Below, piece by piece: positions 2,513 to 26,610 of a DNA stretch of 64,000 nucleotides (position 1 is the first letter of the stretch; the number at the start of each line of letters is the position of its first letter). The DNA is taken from positions 66,291 through 130,290 of the forward strand of contig CACWUA010000001.1 of assembly GCA_902763905.1 (NCBI GenBank), given 5' to 3'. The notes beneath the pieces are model-generated. The model was given only the letters and a program-made list of their open reading frames with translations. It had not been told where the DNA came from and ran no database searches. The position numbers were made by a program, and so were the translations under genes. Source of the stretch: an uncultured Pseudomonadota bacterium. GTDB taxonomy: Bacteria; Pseudomonadota; Alphaproteobacteria; RF32; CAG-239.

Positions 2513-2557
2513 AAATACTTGCAATTTTCAGCAGGTGTATTGATACAAACTCCGTAG

Positions 2558-2706
2558 GCAAGAGAAGAAAATTGCTTGCGGAGTTTCATTGTCTCTCTTA
2601 AAAAAATAACTCCTCGGTTATGGGGGCCGATTCGATATATGATCGGACTGATTGTATGCAGTTGTGAACTTTCCGTATTGAAAGATTAAAGGCGGTTTTG
2701 TTTTTT
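2558..2706 (+). ncRNA. Decayed fourth copy of the pseudoknotted RNA element family (see 18064-18439 and 21618-21762)
   Basis: Same order of blocks as the intact copies: hairpin GCAAG...CTTGC, GGAGT, AAAAATAACTCCTC, GGGGG, hairpin CCGAT...ATCGG, GACTG, GCAGTT, GAACTTTCC, then a T-run. The pseudoknot arms and the GGGGAG/CTCCC helix no longer pair. Confidence 0.4.
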
Positions 2707-2961
2707 AATTGCAACAAAAGGACGTTCCGGCAATAAAAATAAAAGCCTGTCGCATAGATAAACAAAGCATACGATAAATAGGTCGATAATTATGCCAGAT
2801 ACGCCAAGAGAGTAGAATGTATTTGCATAATGCTGCTTTTCGAATACATATTTCTGAAAAAGTTACAAAAGAAATGGAAATCTGCAAATTTATAAATATG
2901 TTTCGTTTTGCTGCGCAGTTGAATTTTACGGTAAATCCATGCGGATTATACTTGAGCAATT

Positions 2962-2996
2962 AAAAAACGCCGCATAAATTGAAGCGGCGTTTTTAT
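2962..2996. terminator. Bidirectional intrinsic terminator between convergent trxA region and rplQ
   Basis: AAAAAA-ACGCCGC-ataaattgaa-GCGGCGT-TTTTTA: a 7-bp GC-rich stem flanked by an A-run and a T-run, 18 nt past the rplQ stop. Confidence 0.75.
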
Positions 2997-17804: not shown

Positions 17805-18029
17805 TTATTCAATTACAACTCGAGCTTTTTTACCATAAAATTCCAGCAAACGTCGATAATATCTGAAAGGCATACATTTGCCGTTTTCCATGCGTTTTAA
17901 TACTTTGAGGCTAAGGTTTGTGGCGACTTGCAATTCCTCGATACTGAGTTGATGTTCAATCCTTAACTGTTTAAATTGTGCGCAAATTTCCGTTAAAACT
18001 TCTTTGCTGAGCAGATTATGCGTACTCAT
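17805..18029 (-). CDS. Small XRE-family helix-turn-helix protein (74 aa), paralog 1
   Basis: FKQLRIEHQLSIEELQVATNLSLKVLKRMENGKCMP fits the HTH_3/XRE pattern. AAGGAG RBS 8 nt upstream. 56 of 74 residues identical to ORF 21366..21590 by manual alignment. Confidence 0.85.
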   Translation of the reverse strand: MSTHNLLSKEVLTEICAQFKQLRIEHQLSIEELQVATNLSLKVLKRMENGKCMPFRYYRRLLEFYGKKARVVIE

Positions 18030-18063
18030 TTTTCAGAACTCCTTTTTTTGCAGTTATCAAAAC

Positions 18064-18210
18064 AAAAAGACCACTCAAAAAAGTGGTCGGGAGTTCCTAA
18101 CTGCAAGAAGACAGTCCGGCTTATTCAATATATTCAGCCGGCTCCCCACCAGCGAGGAGTTATTTTCTTCTTGGGAGTTAGGATACTCCGCAGACAATCT
18201 CTTATCTGCG
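18064..18210 (-). ncRNA. Pseudoknotted structured RNA element, copy A (unclassified family), ending in an intrinsic terminator
   Basis: Minus sense: hairpin GCAGA-taagagattg-TCTGC, then a GGAGT...ACTCC helix whose loop (CCTAACT..CAAGAAG) pairs with downstream CTTCTTG..AGTTAGG. GGGGAG...CTCCC encloses hairpin CCGGC-tgaatatattgaataa-GCCGG. Terminator GACCAC-ttttttga-GTGGTC-TTTT. Helices covary with copies B and C. Confidence 0.8.
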
Positions 18211-18216
18211 ACTCCC

Positions 18217-18244
18217 ATATTACAGAAAATATAACAAAAAGCAA
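18217..18244 (-). promoter_or_regulatory. Sigma70-like promoter of RNA copy A
   Basis: Minus sense TTGCTT-N16-TAATAT, with the -10 box 6-7 nt upstream of the first RNA hairpin. Same -35 box and spacing as copy B. Confidence 0.6.
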
Positions 18245-18292
18245 CGAAAATATTTAAGGTATCACCTTTGTTAGACGTTCTGTAATCAAAAC

Positions 18293-18439
18293 AAAAGACC
18301 ACTCAAAAAAGTGGTCGGGAGTTCGAAACTGCCAATAGTCAGTCCGGTCTATTCAATATATTCAACCGGCTCCCCACCAGCGAGGAGTTATTTTCTATTG
18401 GTGAAGCTTCGACACTCCGCAAACAATCTCTTATTTGCA
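18293..18439 (-). ncRNA. Pseudoknotted structured RNA element, copy B (tandem to copy A)
   Basis: Same architecture as copy A with compensatory changes: GCAAA/TTTGC, CCGGT/ACCGG, CGAAGCT/AGTTTCG, CCAATAG/CTATTGG. Identical terminator GACCAC...GTGGTC-TTTT. Confidence 0.8.
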
Positions 18440-18445
18440 ACAGTC

Positions 18446-18473
18446 ATTGTAATCAGTTTGCTTAAAAAAGCAA
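18446..18473 (-). promoter_or_regulatory. Sigma70-like promoter of RNA copy B (divergent from uvrA)
   Basis: Minus sense TTGCTT-N16-TACAAT immediately upstream of the RNA 5' hairpin. Confidence 0.6.
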
Positions 18474-18539: not shown

Positions 18540-21359
18540 ATGGCAGAAAGTAAATATATCGAAATCAAAGGCGCACGACAGCACAATCTTAAAAACGTTA
18601 ATGTAAACATTCCGAAAAACAAACTGACGGTAATTACCGGCTTATCCGGTTCGGGCAAATCGTCATTGGCATTTGATACGATTTATGCCGAGGGGCAGCG
18701 GCGCTATGTGGAAAGTCTGTCGGTATATGCGCGGCAGTTTCTCGATTTAATGAACAAGCCGGATGTCGATTCGATAGAGGGTTTATCGCCGGCTATTTCG
18801 ATTGAGCAAAAAACCGTTTCCCATAATCCGCGTTCTACCGTCGGCACTATTACCGAAATCTATGATTATATGCGTTTGTTGTGGGCGCGTGCCGGCACTC
18901 CGTATTCGCCGGCCACCGGTTTGCCGATTGAAGCTCAGTCTTTAACCCAAATGGTTGATAAAATTTTGGAATACCCGCAGGGCTCAAAACTGATTTTGCT
19001 TTCGCCGATAGCACGCGGCAAAAAAGGCGAATTTAAAAAAGAATTTGCCGAGTTGCAAAAAAAAGGTTTTCAGCGTTTGGATATCGATGGCGAGATTTAT
19101 AACATTGAAGAACTGCCGAATTTAAATAAAAATATCAAACATAATATTGAAGTGGTAGTTGACCGCATTGTGATAAAAGAGGGGATTCAAACCCGTGTGG
19201 CACAATCGGTGGAAACTGCGCTGAAATTGAGTGACGGACTTTTGTATGTAGAGAACATCGGCGATAAATCGCGCACTACGTTTTCTTCTAAATTTGCTTG
19301 TCCGGTGTCGGGATTTACCATAGAAGAAATCGAACCGCGGTTGTTTTCGTTCAACAATCCGCAGGGAGCTTGTCCGCATTGCGGTGGTTTGGGCGCCAGT
19401 TTATATATGGATCCGGAGTTGGTGGTGCCGAATGAAAATCTGAGTCTGGCCGGCGGCGCGATTGCCCCGTGGTCGGTCAGCAGCCATTCGATTTTTTATC
19501 GCCAAACCTTAAATTCTTTGTGTGAATATTTGGATATTTCCAACAAAACCCCGTGGAAAGATTTACCGGCCTATGCACAGGAGACAATTCTCTACGGTTC
19601 CGGCAATCGCTGTGTGCCGATGGTTTTCTCCAAATGGGTATCGGATAAACCGTTTGAGGGCGTGATTCCGAATTTGGAGCGGCGCTTTGTGGAAACCGAT
19701 TCGGCGGCGGTGCGTGATGAACTTTCGCATTATCAATCGGCCGCACCGTGTGAAGTGTGCCACGGCAAGCGCCTCAAACAAGAGGCTTTGGCTGTTAAAA
19801 TTGCCGGACTTGATATTATGGATGCCAGTAATATGTCGGTAAAACAGGCTTTGGCTTGGTTTAGTGGTGTGGAAGAACAATTAACCCCGCAAAAACGTGA
19901 AATTGCCCGCAAAATACTAAAAGAAATCCGCGAAAGATTAAGCTTTTTAAATAATGTCGGACTGGATTATTTAACCTTGTCGCGCCAATCAGGAACGCTC
20001 TCCGGCGGAGAGGCACAGCGGATTCGCTTAGCTTCGCAAATCGGTACGGGATTAACCGGAGTGATGTATGTTTTGGACGAGCCGTCAATCGGTTTGCACC
20101 AACGCGATAACGATAAACTTCTCGACAGTTTGCGCCGTTTGCGCGATATCGGTAATACAGTGATTGTGGTGGAGCACGATGAAGATGCCATGCGTGCTGC
20201 CGATTATCTGGTGGATATGGGGCCTTTGGCAGGTACCAAAGGAGGCGAAGTCACAGCTTGCGGCACGGTGGATGAAGTTTTGCATAATCCAAACAGCCTG
20301 ACTGCCAAATATTTGAACGGCGAAAAAGAAATTACCCTACCGCTTAAGCGCCGTAAAGGTAACGGCAAATTTTTGGAACTTAAAGGCGCACGTACCAATA
20401 ATTTGAAAAACGTTGATTTAAAAATCCCGCTCGGCACTTTTACCTGTGTTACCGGTATTTCCGGCAGCGGTAAATCTTCGCTGATTTTGGAAACGCTGTT
20501 TAAGGCAGTTGATAAAGAAATGAATGGTAGCCGCGTACCACCGGGGCCGTATGATAAACTCATCGGCTTGGAAAATATTGATAAAGTGATAGATATTGAT
20601 CAATCACCGATTGGCAGGACTCCGCGTTCCAATCCGGCCACTTATACCGGTGTGTTTACCAATATTCGCGATTGGTTTGCCGAGTTGCCGGAAGCCAAAG
20701 CACGCGGCTATACTTCGGGCTATTTTTCGTTTAATGTTGCCGGCGGTCGTTGCGAGGCTTGCAAAGGCGACGGCGTGATGAAAATCGAGATGAACTTTTT
20801 GCCGGACGTATATGTTCCGTGCGATGCCTGCCACGGCACGCGTTATAACCGCGAAACACTGGAAGTTAAGTTTAAGGACAAATCGATTGCCGATGTTTTG
20901 GATATGACCATTGACGACGCTTACAAGTTTTTTGAGAACATTCCGGCGATTAAGCGGCGGTTGGATTTGTTGCGCCGTGTGGGTTTGGGATATGTCAAAC
21001 TCGGACAGCCGGCACCGACACTTTCCGGCGGCGAGGCACAACGCATTAAACTTTCCAAAGAGTTGAGCAAAAAAGCCACCGGTAAGACATTATATATCTT
21101 GGATGAGCCTACAACCGGTCTGCATTTTGAGGATATTCAGCACCTGCTTGACGTTTTGGAAATGCTGGTGGATCAGGGCAACACCGTGGTGGTTATCGAA
21201 CATAATCTCGATGTGATAAAAATGGCGGATTATATTGTTGACGTGGGGCCGGAGGGCGGCGACGGCGGCGGCACGATTGTGGCTCAAGGCACACCGGAGG
21301 AAGTAGTGAAAAACAAAAAGAGCTTTACCGGTAAATATCTGAAAGGCAAGTTGAAATAA
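18540..21359 (+). CDS. uvrA: Excinuclease ABC subunit A
   Basis: Canonical start [19 protein letters not shown] preceded by GGAGAAAAAAA. Two ABC modules (GLSGSGKSS and GISGSGKSS Walker A; LSGGEAQRI twice). Zn-finger CxxC pairs ([30 protein letters not shown]). Confidence 0.95.
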
Positions 21360-21365
21360 ATGGCT

Positions 21366-21590
21366 TTATTCAATCACGATTCGTATTTCTTTGCCGTAAA
21401 AATCGAGTAAAAGCCGGTAATATCGGAAAGGTAAGCACTTACCATTTTCCATACGTTTTAATGTTTTGAGTTTAAGGTGGGTGGCGGCTTGCAAATCCTC
21501 TATGCTGAGTTGACGCTCAAGACGCAACTGCTTAAGCTGCGAACAAATATCTGTTAAAACTTTTTTACTAAGCAAATTATGTGAACTCAT
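21366..21590 (-). CDS. Small XRE-family helix-turn-helix protein (74 aa), paralog 2
   Basis: LKQLRLERQLSIEDLQAATHLKLKTLKRMENGKCLP. AAGGAG RBS. Stop codon only 6 nt from the uvrA stop (convergent). Confidence 0.85.
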   Translation of the reverse strand: MSSHNLLSKKVLTDICSQLKQLRLERQLSIEDLQAATHLKLKTLKRMENGKCLPFRYYRLLLDFYGKEIRIVIE

Positions 21591-21617
21591 ATTTTTTAAC
21601 TCCTTTTTGTTATATTA

Positions 21618-21762
21618 AAAAACCACCCTAAATTCCTTTAAGGTGGGGAGTTCGTAACTGTAAGAGAACAGTCTGATTTATTCAATATATTCATCAGCTC
21701 CCCATAATAGAGGAGTTATTTTCTCTTAAGGAGCTACGACACTCCGCAGACAATCTCTTGGC
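21618..21762 (-). ncRNA. Pseudoknotted structured RNA element, copy C
   Basis: Same block order. Compensatory helices CTGAT/ATCAG, CGTAGCT/AGTTACG, TAAGAGAA/TTCTCTTA. Terminator CCACC-ttaaaggaatttag-GGTGG-TTTTTT. Perfect TATAAT (plus 21769-21774) just upstream of the 5' hairpin. Confidence 0.75.
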
Positions 21763-21850
21763 TGCAAGATTATACTAAACAATTTGCAATAAAAGGGCAA
21801 GCAAAAAATTTTGAGCTTGCATTTTTTGCTTATTTTTATATGTTTGAATT

Positions 21851-24584: not shown

Positions 24585-25574
24585 TTATTTATGGCCGCTG
24601 ATGGTATGTGAACGAGCCAGATTGGTGGCCACCGTAAAGTTGACATGGCTCGGTTGTTCGTGCGGTTTATTGTATTCTACCGCAAACTGCATTCCGCCTT
24701 TTCCGATACCGCCGCGGACCGATAAGTCTCTGTCCTGAGTGATGACGGTTTCGACAATGGATTTCCAGCCGCGGCGCAAGTCGTACCACGCGCGCGCCCC
24801 CAAGTTGCCGTAATGTTGTTTGGCATCGTAGTGGCCGAAGATTTTAGCGCCGTATGCTTTGCTGCGGATACCGATTGAACCGAGCAGTTGGCGATGTTCA
24901 CCACCCATACGCATGGCAGCGGTCATATCGAGTTTTACACCGCTGTTTTCCAAGAGGGTTAAGCCGCATTTGGCCCAAAAGTCGGACTTTTTCGGATTAG
25001 GCACCACATAAAAACCGTCACCGGCGCTGCCTATCATACCGAGCTCAATGAACTGCCCGCCTTTTTCGTAGCCGAAGACGATACGGTCGCTGGCATTGCC
25101 GAAACGGCCGATGTCATAAGCGTCGGCATAATAACTGAGCGGGTTATCAAATACAGCTCCGGCCTCGGTAGCCTCACGACCGGCCTTAAAGGTAATTACG
25201 GCACCGTTGCCGAGTTGCTTACCCAATTCAAGCATAAATTTAATGGTAATCGCCGACCATGCTTCGTTGCTGTAAATAATGCCTTCCTGACCGGAAAGTT
25301 GCGCATAATCACCGCGGCTGTTTGCGGCTCTTGCCATAAATGACGGGGCAAAGTCGTTATAAAAAGTTGTCTTGCCTTCTTCCACGGTTAAGCCGGAAAT
25401 GTCGGCGGCATTAAGGGTTAAAGATATACGGTCAATGTTGCGGTCTGAAACCGGTTGCGTAGCCTTTTGCTCTTGGGCAACGGCAGTGGCTGCGGTTAAA
25501 AGCAGAGTGTTTATAACAAAGTTGCGCAAGTTGAATTGTTCCATAACGCTGTTTGATTTAGATTGTTCTCTCAT
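24585..25574 (-). CDS. Secreted/outer-membrane protein of unknown function, paralog 1
   Basis: Signal peptide ...NTLLLTAATAVA-QEQK. Collinear similarity to ORF 25624..26610 along the full length (FMLELGKQLGNGAVITFKAGREATE vs FMLELGRLTGNGGVITFKAGREKTE). Confidence 0.7.
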   Translation of the reverse strand: MREQSKSNSVMEQFNLRNFVINTLLLTAATAVAQEQKATQPVSDRNIDRISLTLNAADISGLTVEEGKTTFYNDFAPSFMARAANSRGDYAQLSGQEGIIYSNEAWSAITIKFMLELGKQLGNGAVITFKAGREATEAGAVFDNPLSYYADAYDIGRFGNASDRIVFGYEKGGQFIELGMIGSAGDGFYVVPNPKKSDFWAKCGLTLLENSGVKLDMTAAMRMGGEHRQLLGSIGIRSKAYGAKIFGHYDAKQHYGNLGARAWYDLRRGWKSIVETVITQDRDLSVRGGIGKGGMQFAVEYNKPHEQPSHVNFTVATNLARSHTISGHK

Positions 25575-25623
25575 TTTTCTTCTCCATTTAGAAATGTAAA
25601 TTTAATTAAAAACCATATTATTT

Positions 25624-26610
25624 TCATACCAAGCTTGAGTGTGCAAAACGCGTAGCCACCGTTATATTGGCGTATGACGATTGGCCCTTCGGTTTGCCGT
25701 ATTCCACGGAAAACTGCATACCTGATTTGCCGATGCCGCTGCGGATATATAAATCGCGATTTTGGTTGAATATGGTTTCGGCAATTATCTGCCAACCGTT
25801 TTTAAAATCTTTCCATGCGCGCAGACCGATATTGCCTTTTTTCTCGGCAAAATCGTAGTTACCCAAAAATCCGGCACCGAAACCTGAACGTTCGGATATG
25901 CCGATGGAACTTAACAGCTGTTTGTGTTTGCTACCAAAGCGCACCGCTCCGCTCATATTGAGTTTGACACTGCTTTTTTCTAAGAGAGTTAAACCGCTCT
26001 TGGCCCAAAAATCGGCATGTTTCGGATTCGGTATAACGAAAAATCCGTCGCCGTTTTTGCCGATGATGCCGAGTTCGATAAAACGATTGCCTTTTTGATA
26101 TCCGAAAACCAGCCTTTCCGCGCTGTTGGCCATCTGGTAGGCATCGCGGGAGTCGGCATAATATTCGAGGGCGTGGTCAAACAAGGCCGCACCTTCGGTT
26201 TTTTCGCGGCCGGCTTTGAAAGTGATTACGCCGCCGTTACCGGTTAATCTGCCGAGTTCCAGCATAAATTTGGATGTAATCGGAGTAAAGTTTTTATCTT
26301 CCAGAATTAAGACTTCCATTGCCTTAAGCTGAGCATAATCGCCGTGCGTGTTTTGAACACGCGCCGTCAAATTCGGTCTTAAATCGTTGTAAAATACGGT
26401 TTTATCCTGTTTAAGCGTCAATGCGGCAATATTTTCCGCACCGAGCGTCAAGGTCAGCTTGTCCGGCCGAACGTCGGAATATGTTTGCGGAACTTTTTGT
26501 TCCTGGGCAAAGGCCGCAGTAGTAGCGGTCAAAAGTAAAGTTTTTAAAATAAGTTTACATATATCAAAATTTTTTGTTTCCTGCGTACAGGGGTGGGGGT
26601 CATCACTCAT
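25624..26610 (-). CDS. Secreted/outer-membrane protein of unknown function, paralog 2
   Basis: AGGAGG RBS. MSDDPHPC n-region, then the signal peptide KTLLLTATTAAFA-QEQK. Tandem paralog of 24585..25574. Confidence 0.7.
   Translation of the reverse strand: MSDDPHPCTQETKNFDICKLILKTLLLTATTAAFAQEQKVPQTYSDVRPDKLTLTLGAENIAALTLKQDKTVFYNDLRPNLTARVQNTHGDYAQLKAMEVLILEDKNFTPITSKFMLELGRLTGNGGVITFKAGREKTEGAALFDHALEYYADSRDAYQMANSAERLVFGYQKGNRFIELGIIGKNGDGFFVIPNPKHADFWAKSGLTLLEKSSVKLNMSGAVRFGSKHKQLLSSIGISERSGFGAGFLGNYDFAEKKGNIGLRAWKDFKNGWQIIAETIFNQNRDLYIRSGIGKSGMQFSVEYGKPKGQSSYANITVATRFAHSSLV

Follow-up and report, generated by a model that had tools for sequence, protein, structure and literature searches.

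An RNA-terminator-XRE gene module in an uncultured alphaproteobacterium resembles the Brt/Trp design of Bartonella

In Bartonella henselae nine highly expressed small RNAs (sRNAs) of 194-203 nt, Brt1-9, each lie directly 5' of a poorly transcribed gene, Trp1-9, of the XRE family of helix-turn-helix (HTH) proteins; one Trp partner is a pseudogene and the Brt family was reported as unique to the genus Bartonella (PMC5387305). The trp genes start about 15 nt downstream of Brt and have no discernible promoter, deletion of the Brt1 3' stem-loop leads to high trp1 transcription, and Trp1 binds the badA promoter; temperature and pH were without effect on Brt/trp and haem was suggested as a signal (PMC8070961). 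Both Brt1 and sRNA-Xcc1, a further RNA of interest here, have been described as trans-acting (PMC5387305). Here we describe a structured RNA that occurs in several copies, with genes for 74-aa XRE proteins behind it, in a 64,000-nt stretch of contig CACWUA010000001.1 (assembly GCA_902763905.1, positions 66,291 to 130,290; hereafter the window) from an uncultured alphaproteobacterium of the CAG-239 lineage. A promoter, an RNA, an intrinsic terminator and a protein gene also make up type III toxin-antitoxin systems (ToxIN), in which the terminator fixes the RNA:protein ratio. ToxIN differs by its short processed RNA repeats and its endoribonuclease, whereas the window carries a ~230-bp promoter-bearing RNA gene and an XRE HTH protein.

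Three intact copies of the RNA (units B, A and C) are found on the minus strand of the window, each with a promoter, a core of 125 nt and an intrinsic terminator (Table 1). The common plan of ~230 bp (n = 3) starts with A/T-rich DNA upstream of a -35 box (C)TTGC(T/A/C)N; a spacer of 16-17 nt, a -10 box (TAATAT, TACAAT or TAGTAT), the conserved core of ~125 nt and a G+C-rich hairpin with a U-tract behind it come next. Exactly three terminators, those listed for B, A and C, emerged from the terminator scan, and one conserved 18-mer was seen three times against 0.08 expected, a repeat beyond chance. Open reading frames (ORFs) overlapping the RNA units were considered as coding candidates and rejected, the conservation being at the level of nucleotides and base pairing. 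Genes for two HTH proteins that are 76% identical, HTH1 and HTH2, follow units A and C, and downstream of unit B we found the promoter of unit A and no ORF. A first-pass annotation of this DNA had described the tandem units as autonomous, in agreement with the promoter and terminator that each of them carries.

The same annotation had placed the HTH genes close behind the RNA terminators with an AAGGAG ribosome-binding site in the gap, and this is what we measured. From the first U5 run of copy A to the ATG there are 34 nt (29 nt if counted from where the tail as a whole ends), and from the U6 run of copy C to its ATG at 21590 there are 26 nt. Both gaps contain an A-tract and AAGGAGUU. A promoter scan of the gaps of A and C returned no sigma-70-like site on the minus strand, and gaps of 26-34 nt leave no room for a promoter of the HTH genes' own, as had been argued. 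With no such room in the gap the HTH genes would depend on read-through of the RNA terminator; this earlier proposal gains from the conservation of the layout in ~35 loci and, by analogy, from the Brt1/trp1 precedent (PMC8070961). HTH1 and HTH2 match the XRE-type models HTH_31, HTH_3 and HTH_25 (E 1e-6 to 3e-4, some matches just under the Pfam cut-offs) and are modelled by AlphaFold2 as a generic four-helix XRE domain (mean pLDDT 77). The nearest PDB structures found by Foldseek are HipB antitoxins and controller proteins of restriction-modification systems, with weak E-values, and neither PADLOC nor NCBIfam gave a match at a curated cut-off or one pointing to a specific family. A more specific assignment was rejected since PADLOC, NCBIfam, PDB sequence and Foldseek searches all led to generic XRE only (HipB, C-proteins, MBF1). 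The proteins would be expected to bind DNA.

The module is not confined to the window. A metagenome scan with the invariant loop pattern returned 67 loci, of which ~35 have a true RNA copy, and almost all of these ~35 loci, from metagenomes or metagenome-assembled genomes (MAGs), repeat the RNA-terminator-HTH layout with a relative of 71-80 aa behind the RNA (phmmer E 1e-4 to 1e-48). These relatives are often 20-35% identical, falling to ~25%, and have the C-terminal motif FYGKKxxIxxE in common. In 36 modules a median of 31 nt separates the U-tract from the start codon, the range being 21-42 nt with one mis-parsed locus excepted. Conversely, an RNA copy was found 5' of every HTH homologue fetched except one (L006; loci are numbered L001 onwards where one has to be told apart), a distant Rikenellaceae match with 44% identity over 43 residues. 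Close HTH clusters are rare, only 10 among 5.8 billion proteins, and their genome matches are rumen alphaproteobacterial MAGs (RUG13901 with 100% and RGIG3536 with 99% identity). A profile from 25 diverse members retrieved only 55 clusters, all of 73-99 aa and all from metagenomes or MAGs, with an alphaproteobacterial MAG as the sole named source and no Bartonella among them. Clustering of the neighbouring ORFs gave no conserved third gene besides the HTH gene. Of the RNA itself, the promoter (-35 CTTGCA, -10 TAATAT) is kept in nearly all of ~40 copies, and 41 of 41 have a U-tract behind a terminator hairpin whose energy lies between -10 and -15 kcal/mol.

The number of RNA copies is 1, 2 or 3 in otherwise near-identical loci. 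Beside tyrS, 5' of orthologous HTH genes, we counted one copy in L001, two in the window and in L002 and three in L007, although collapse of repeats during assembly may affect these numbers. Complete units with another RNA unit behind them are copy B, L002a and L007a/b.

Loss of the module can also be seen in the window. On the plus strand, 3' of a thioredoxin-like ORF (identified by eye), lies a fourth, degenerate RNA copy, and behind it an HTH pseudogene which tblastn aligns over two frames with an HTH protein of the L074 type (E 3e-19). Its subfamily differs from that of HTH1 and HTH2, the nearest types being L074, L053 and L015, and the genome therefore formerly carried two paralogous module types. 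The window thus contains three intact RNAs and a degenerate one, together with two HTH genes and an HTH pseudogene. That RNA and HTH gene have both decayed at 2552-2962 suggests that RNA and protein are gained and lost together.

To describe the RNA fold we ran RNAalifold on 41 sequences and built a covariance model (CM R1) from the RNA family. The consensus has six helices, P1-P6, with compensation in 27 of 38 pairs. P1 is a 5' hairpin; P2 (GGAGU/ACUCC), P3 (e.g. UCCUAACU/AGUUAGGA) and the hypervariable P4 (e.g. CAAGAAGA/UCUUCUUG) form a long bipartite helix linking the 5' and 3' ends, and P5 (CUCCUC/GGGGAG) and P6 (CCGGC/GCCGG) are hairpins in the junction that it encloses. Three unpaired blocks are invariant, namely the P6 loop GAAUAUAUUGAAUA, GACUG and AAGAGAU. 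In a MAFFT alignment 92.2% of cells are paired, compared with 77% after shuffling and 36-48% with slid partners, and in 25 of 39 pairs both bases have changed. The alignment fitted to the model, which leans towards its model, gives 97.4% and 27 of 39, and all seven P4 pairs show 4-6 pair types each in it. Slid-partner controls over both alignments paired in 33-48% of cells, and at most 1 of 500 shuffles matched the observed pairing on any measure. The minimum free energy (MFE) structures of the single sequences A and C are exactly the consensus fold plus the terminator (Table 1). P2 ends 1-2 nt 5' of the terminator stem, so that the dominant fold and the terminator coexist. The earlier idea that the RNA domain and the terminator may be mutually exclusive is not supported in that form: in the covariation-supported MFE fold the 3' CUCC pairs with the 5' GGAGU (P2) and GGGGAG pairs with CUCCUC (P5), and the fold stacks on the terminator. 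Plausibly, the hypervariability of P3/P4 prevents mispairing between paralogous or tandem copies. In two loci (L070:5195-5320 and L075:3120-3245) the 5' strand of P3 is that of one variant, UCCUAACU, while the 3' strand is that of another (AGUUUCGA or AGUUACGA), which suggests recombination between copies or assembly chimeras.

Table 1. Features of the RNA-terminator-HTH modules in the window (positions counted from its first letter; MFE, minimum free energy; SD, Shine-Dalgarno sequence)
Feature	Position	Strand	Evidence or detail
RNA unit B	18287..18473	-	CM R1 132 bits, terminator scan, alignment; RNA 18440-18287
Unit B promoter	-35 TTGCTT 18473-18468; -10 TACAAT 18451-18446	-	
Unit B core, terminator, U-tract	18440-18315; 18316-18297; 18296-18287	-	
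RNA unit A	18059..18244	-	CM R1 128.9 bits, MFE -67.8 kcal/mol (z -8.5), terminator scan; RNA 18211-18059
Unit A promoter	-35 TTGCTT 18244-18239; -10 TAATAT 18222-18217	-	
Unit A core	18211-18087	-	P1, P2-P3-P4 long helix, P5, P6
Unit A terminator stem	18088-18069	-	arms GACCACUU/GAGUGGUC; U-tract UUUUUGUUUU 18068-18059
Gap before HTH1	18030..18058	-	A-tract and SD AAGGAGUU (AAGGAG 18044-18039), no promoter-like site
HTH1	17805..18029 (ATG 18029)	-	74-aa XRE-family helix-turn-helix
RNA unit C	21617..21800	-	CM R1 130 bits, MFE -57.1 kcal/mol (z -6.4), terminator scan; RNA 21767-21617
Unit C promoter	-35 TTGCCC 21800-21795; -10 TAGTAT 21777-21772	-	
Unit C core, terminator stem, U6 run	21767-21644; 21646-21623; 21622-21617	-	
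Gap and HTH2	21366..21616	-	SD AAGGAG 21605-21600; HTH2 74 aa, 21590-21366
Degenerate fourth RNA copy	2552..2675	+	CM R1 57.9 bits, E 9e-12
HTH pseudogene behind degenerate RNA	2716..2962	+	2 in-frame stops and a frameshift

Taken together, these data lead us to favour, with moderate confidence, a module that makes an abundant terminated sRNA and produces its regulator only by terminator read-through. The RNA would be an sRNA gene with a strong sigma-70-type promoter, a structured core of ~125 nt and a canonical intrinsic terminator. As the dominant fold is predicted to leave the terminator free and to stack on it, most transcripts would end at the U-tract and accumulate as an sRNA of ~155 nt. 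The 74-aa XRE gene, ~30 nt past the U-tract and preceded by a Shine-Dalgarno (SD) sequence only, would be transcribed solely from the RNA promoter by read-through, with the terminator acting as an attenuator that fixes a high RNA:low regulator ratio; tandem copies without an HTH gene would push this ratio higher. Read-through may also be modulated, since GGGGAG could exchange CUCCUC for the 3' CUCCC(C/G..) and so remove the bottom 2-4 bp of the terminator. Several points weigh against this reading. Promoter use, 3' ends and the level of read-through in the host are all predicted from sequence, with which a weak, non-consensus HTH promoter overlapping the terminator is compatible. The terminators look strong, and the HTH protein might hardly ever be made, which would leave its conservation unexplained. 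Finally, homology with Brt is not demonstrable, as detailed below, and the Bartonella result is for this reason carried over by analogy.

The window family and Brt/Trp, the nearest system known, have in common that they occur in Alphaproteobacteria as multicopy sRNA genes directly 5' of, and co-directional with, a promoter-less XRE gene, that an RNA/pseudogene pair is present in the genome, and that a 3' stem-loop serves as a transcriptional attenuator, which in our case is a prediction. The layout had initially been called unusual, but Brt/Trp provides a precedent (PMC5387305). The fold can be compared with that of nine Brt units, in part by eye, with the help of the GGAG/CUCC segments of our RNA: S1 (GGAGU), S2 (AACUCC), S3 (AACUCCUC), S4 (GGGGAG), S5 (GAACUCCC) and, as a sixth, the SD AAGGAGUU. 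The same order of elements is found in both families. It begins with a 5' hairpin and continues with a G-rich/C-rich (GGG..CCC) hairpin whose loop pairs just 5' of ACUCCCGG in Brt (ACUCCC) and with a variable 5' strand, whose pairing partner is the loop of a CUG(A)..(U)CAG hairpin. The Brt hairpin CCCGG-AAUU-CCGGGAG, like S3:S4, comes next, and CCGGGAG/CUCCCGG, like S4:S5, is picked by RNAalifold as the Brt closing helix. Duplexes between cognate strands have -17.0 kcal/mol compared with -8.4 for non-cognate strands in Brt, where the cognate is the best partner in 9/9 cases, and -16.0 compared with -6.4 kcal/mol in the window family, where this holds for 31/40. This confirms for both families a bipartite long-range helix that is specific to each copy.

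On the other hand, by RNA similarity, the Brt authors' own family criterion, the two could not be joined: CM R1 scored 10.1 bits (E = 1) against the Bartonella grahamii plasmid pBGR3, and nhmmer found nothing in either direction. BLASTP gave no alignment between the HTH proteins and Trp, whose homologues are all from Bartonella. Trp proteins have 108-152 aa compared with 74 aa in the window, and Brt has ~200 nt with extra hairpins compared with ~155 nt. The Brt 3' stem-loop has no U-tract and forms base pairs with the SD, whereas the window family has a textbook intrinsic terminator; for the Brt ACUCCC segment, the equivalent of S5, pairing to the trp SD region is predicted. Tandem RNA copies without an HTH gene are a further feature of the window family, and its hosts, unlike Bartonella, are uncultured rumen and gut Alphaproteobacteria. 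We regard the window family as a variant of the Brt/Trp design, which is known but has been little studied, and not as a member of the Brt family; common descent is plausible.

In a different reading the module is a signal-responsive riboswitch or attenuator: a ligand, a protein or a physical cue would stabilise an sRNA-Xcc1-like fold (an S1:S2 hairpin, the closing helix GGGGAG/CUCCC plus 2-4 nt and an ACUG/CAGU hairpin), thereby stripping the base of the terminator and switching the HTH gene on. The first-pass annotation had pointed in this direction with a closing helix that corresponds to S4:S5 and that also closes the 3' half of the RNA when threaded on the Rfam sRNA-Xcc1 model. The pairings it listed are literally there, GGU-G-GGGAG with CUCCC-G-ACC in A and B and UGGGGAG with CUCCCCA in C, where CC(A) is common to the terminator arm CCACC. 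The covariation also speaks for such a fold. The alternative set of helices is 93.8% paired against 43-59% with slid partners, 6 of 16 pairs having changed on both sides, and S3, S4 and S5 covary as a triplet in four sequence classes (e.g. GUGGAG/UCCAC/CUCCAC and GAGGGAG/CUCCUUCU/CUCCCUC). In four divergent copies, where P2 has a U-U mismatch, the S1:S2 hairpin is possible as GGUG(U)/(A)CAUC in a shifted register (-0.9 to -2.8 kcal/mol), UGGU 5' of S4 is found only with GACCAC terminators, and S4:S5 would occupy the bottom 2-4 nt of the terminator 5' arm in every sequence class. We consider that the alternative fold is probably real, be it an intermediate in folding or a regulated state. The invariant unpaired blocks could be a binding site, and Brt has been proposed as a haem-responsive riboswitch (PMC8070961).

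That this fold makes the module a switch nevertheless seems unlikely to us. When enforced, S4:S5 makes the structure less stable by 12-15 kcal/mol and takes away only the bottom 2-4 bp of the terminator, of which 8 bp remain in copy C, and the classical ON switch that had been envisaged is not supported in that form. The order of transcription would favour P4, P3, P2 and then the terminator. In terms of terminator/antiterminator riboswitches the segments 1:2/2:3/3:4 can be drawn here as S3:S4, S4:S5 and the terminator, but the overlap of 2:3 with the terminator is only 2-4 nt and no Rfam aptamer matches. A riboswitch would always be the 5' leader of the ORF that it regulates, whereas here every feature is also present in tandem copies that no ORF follows, and this speaks against a mere leader or riboswitch. 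Moreover, the regulated gene codes for a transcription factor and not for a metabolic or transport function that would suggest a ligand, and in Bartonella the lack of effect of temperature and pH is joined by a haem case that consists of reporter data described only in a review.

Less probable still is that RNA and HTH gene are independent neighbours, a trans-acting sRNA of the sRNA-Xcc1 type next to a gene that has an unrecognised promoter of its own or is expressed by way of a processed transcript. An Rfam scan of the whole window at gathering threshold gave no match, and the sole match of an E-value scan was sub-threshold sRNA-Xcc1 (RF02221; 29.6, 29.4 and 29.3 bits compared with a gathering cut-off of 53). 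This resemblance of the 3' half, the trans action described for both sRNA-Xcc1 and Brt1 (PMC5387305) and the upstream tandem copies without an HTH gene would suit such independence. It is opposed by a linkage and a spacing of ~31 nt that persist in ~35 loci while the protein drifts to ~25% identity, by the gap without a promoter-like site and by the joint decay of RNA and HTH gene. An addiction module of type III layout, in which the RNA neutralises or is neutralised by a small DNA-binding protein, is the least probable: the order equals toxI-terminator-toxN, the modules are small, multicopy and position-variable with one pseudogene, canonical sRNA-Xcc1 precedes symE, a toxin gene, in integron cassettes of Xanthomonas and HipB antitoxins are among the nearest structures, but the protein has a plain XRE fold and neither a nuclease nor a toxin domain, short tandem RNA repeats for processing are missing, PADLOC gave no specific match, no copy was found in viral contigs and no homologue in plasmid or phage collections (blastn/tblastn), and the loci are syntenic between related MAGs, beside tyrS and uvrA. 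In these searches blastn of the RNA gave only a terminator-like 36-nt match to Staphylococcus plasmids and nothing in phages, tblastn of the HTH protein gave one marginal plasmid match, and among viral contigs the scan met with two chance matches but with no true RNA copy.

The likeness to sRNA-Xcc1 can be stated more precisely. The 3' half of the window RNA threads on the model, where GGUGGGGAG/CUCCCGACC is the closing helix and two hairpins inside it and a U-rich tail are also matched, but the model covers only ~74 of ~155 nt, and in the window family the second Xcc1 hairpin and the closing helix are replaced by long-range helices to the 5' extension. Canonical sRNA-Xcc1 also lies 5' of small same-strand genes, namely symE in Xanthomonas cassettes, the gene of an ORF6N protein in phage APSE and a coding sequence (CDS) on pBGR3, and it forms tandem arrays in Xylella. 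The pBGR3 match (L077, 25880-25967, minus strand; 49.5 bits compared with the cut-off of 53) is directly 5' of the CDS 25171-25839 and ~500 nt from the Brt/trp unit, to which it is divergent; one replicon thus carries both Xcc1-like and Brt RNAs. An Rfam scan of the Brt region itself gave no sRNA-Xcc1 match.

From an evolutionary point of view we speculate, tentatively and with more doubt than conviction, that the window family, Brt and sRNA-Xcc1 belong as branches to a single old superfamily of sRNA leaders that attenuate themselves and gate XRE, SymE and ORF6N proteins across Proteobacteria, with a bistable core and with P3/P4 as a copy-specific address. If our hypothesis were correct, the Xcc1-like closed fold would erode the terminator and the long-range fold would free it, and the P3/P4 address would prevent cross-talk in the folding of many paralogous switches and of tandem copies that share a read-through transcript. 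Whatever its descent, the structured RNA family is new, being absent from Rfam 15, and its covariation is unusually rich. A counterpart of the RNA-terminator-XRE design, which was described as specific to Bartonella, exists in uncultured Alphaproteobacteria of rumen and gut. For the Brt mechanism, where a riboswitch, a thermometer and a plain attenuator are the candidates, a tested secondary structure with explicit competing helices can guide mutagenesis in the tractable Bartonella. A testable link is also raised to sRNA-Xcc1, which is widespread but functionally obscure.

Two complementarities were noted around the gap. The terminator tail UUUUUG(UUUU) is complementary to (G)CAAAAA just 5' of the SD in most of the 36 related modules (in the window at 18068-18045 and 21622-21606, minus strand), and modules without the G in the tail mostly also lack the C in the A-tract; tail and A-tract could form a hairpin in read-through transcripts. 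The SD GGAGUU(C/A) is also complementary to (G/U)AACUCC of S5 (18099-18093 and 18042-18036, minus strand; columns 131-137/201-207 of alignment A2). Here 94% of cells are paired and the outer pair is changed from G-C to U-A in six sequences, the swapped base of S5 also covarying with the 5' strand of P3. Sequestration of the SD in read-through RNA was rejected since MFE folding does not favour it, although the complementarity is kept.

The modules at 18473-17805 and 21800-21366 bracket uvrA (18541-21359, plus strand) and are both opposite to it in orientation. This two-module bracketing is seen in close relatives only, as is the adjacency to uvrA and tyrS, and the link with DNA damage that had been suggested from the uvrA neighbourhood is therefore unsupported. 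A conserved HTH operator was sought around the promoters, where TTGCAA-like boxes recur near many of them but with inconsistent spacing, and because of this we make no operator claim. A palindrome-like box is found at 21829-21815 (minus strand), ~20-35 bp 5' of the -35 box of unit C and about -55 to -70 from the RNA start, as AGCAAAAAATGCAAG in the window and as TGCAAAAAATTGCA upstream of the unit C orthologues in L005 and L058; it might be an operator or part of the divergent gene.

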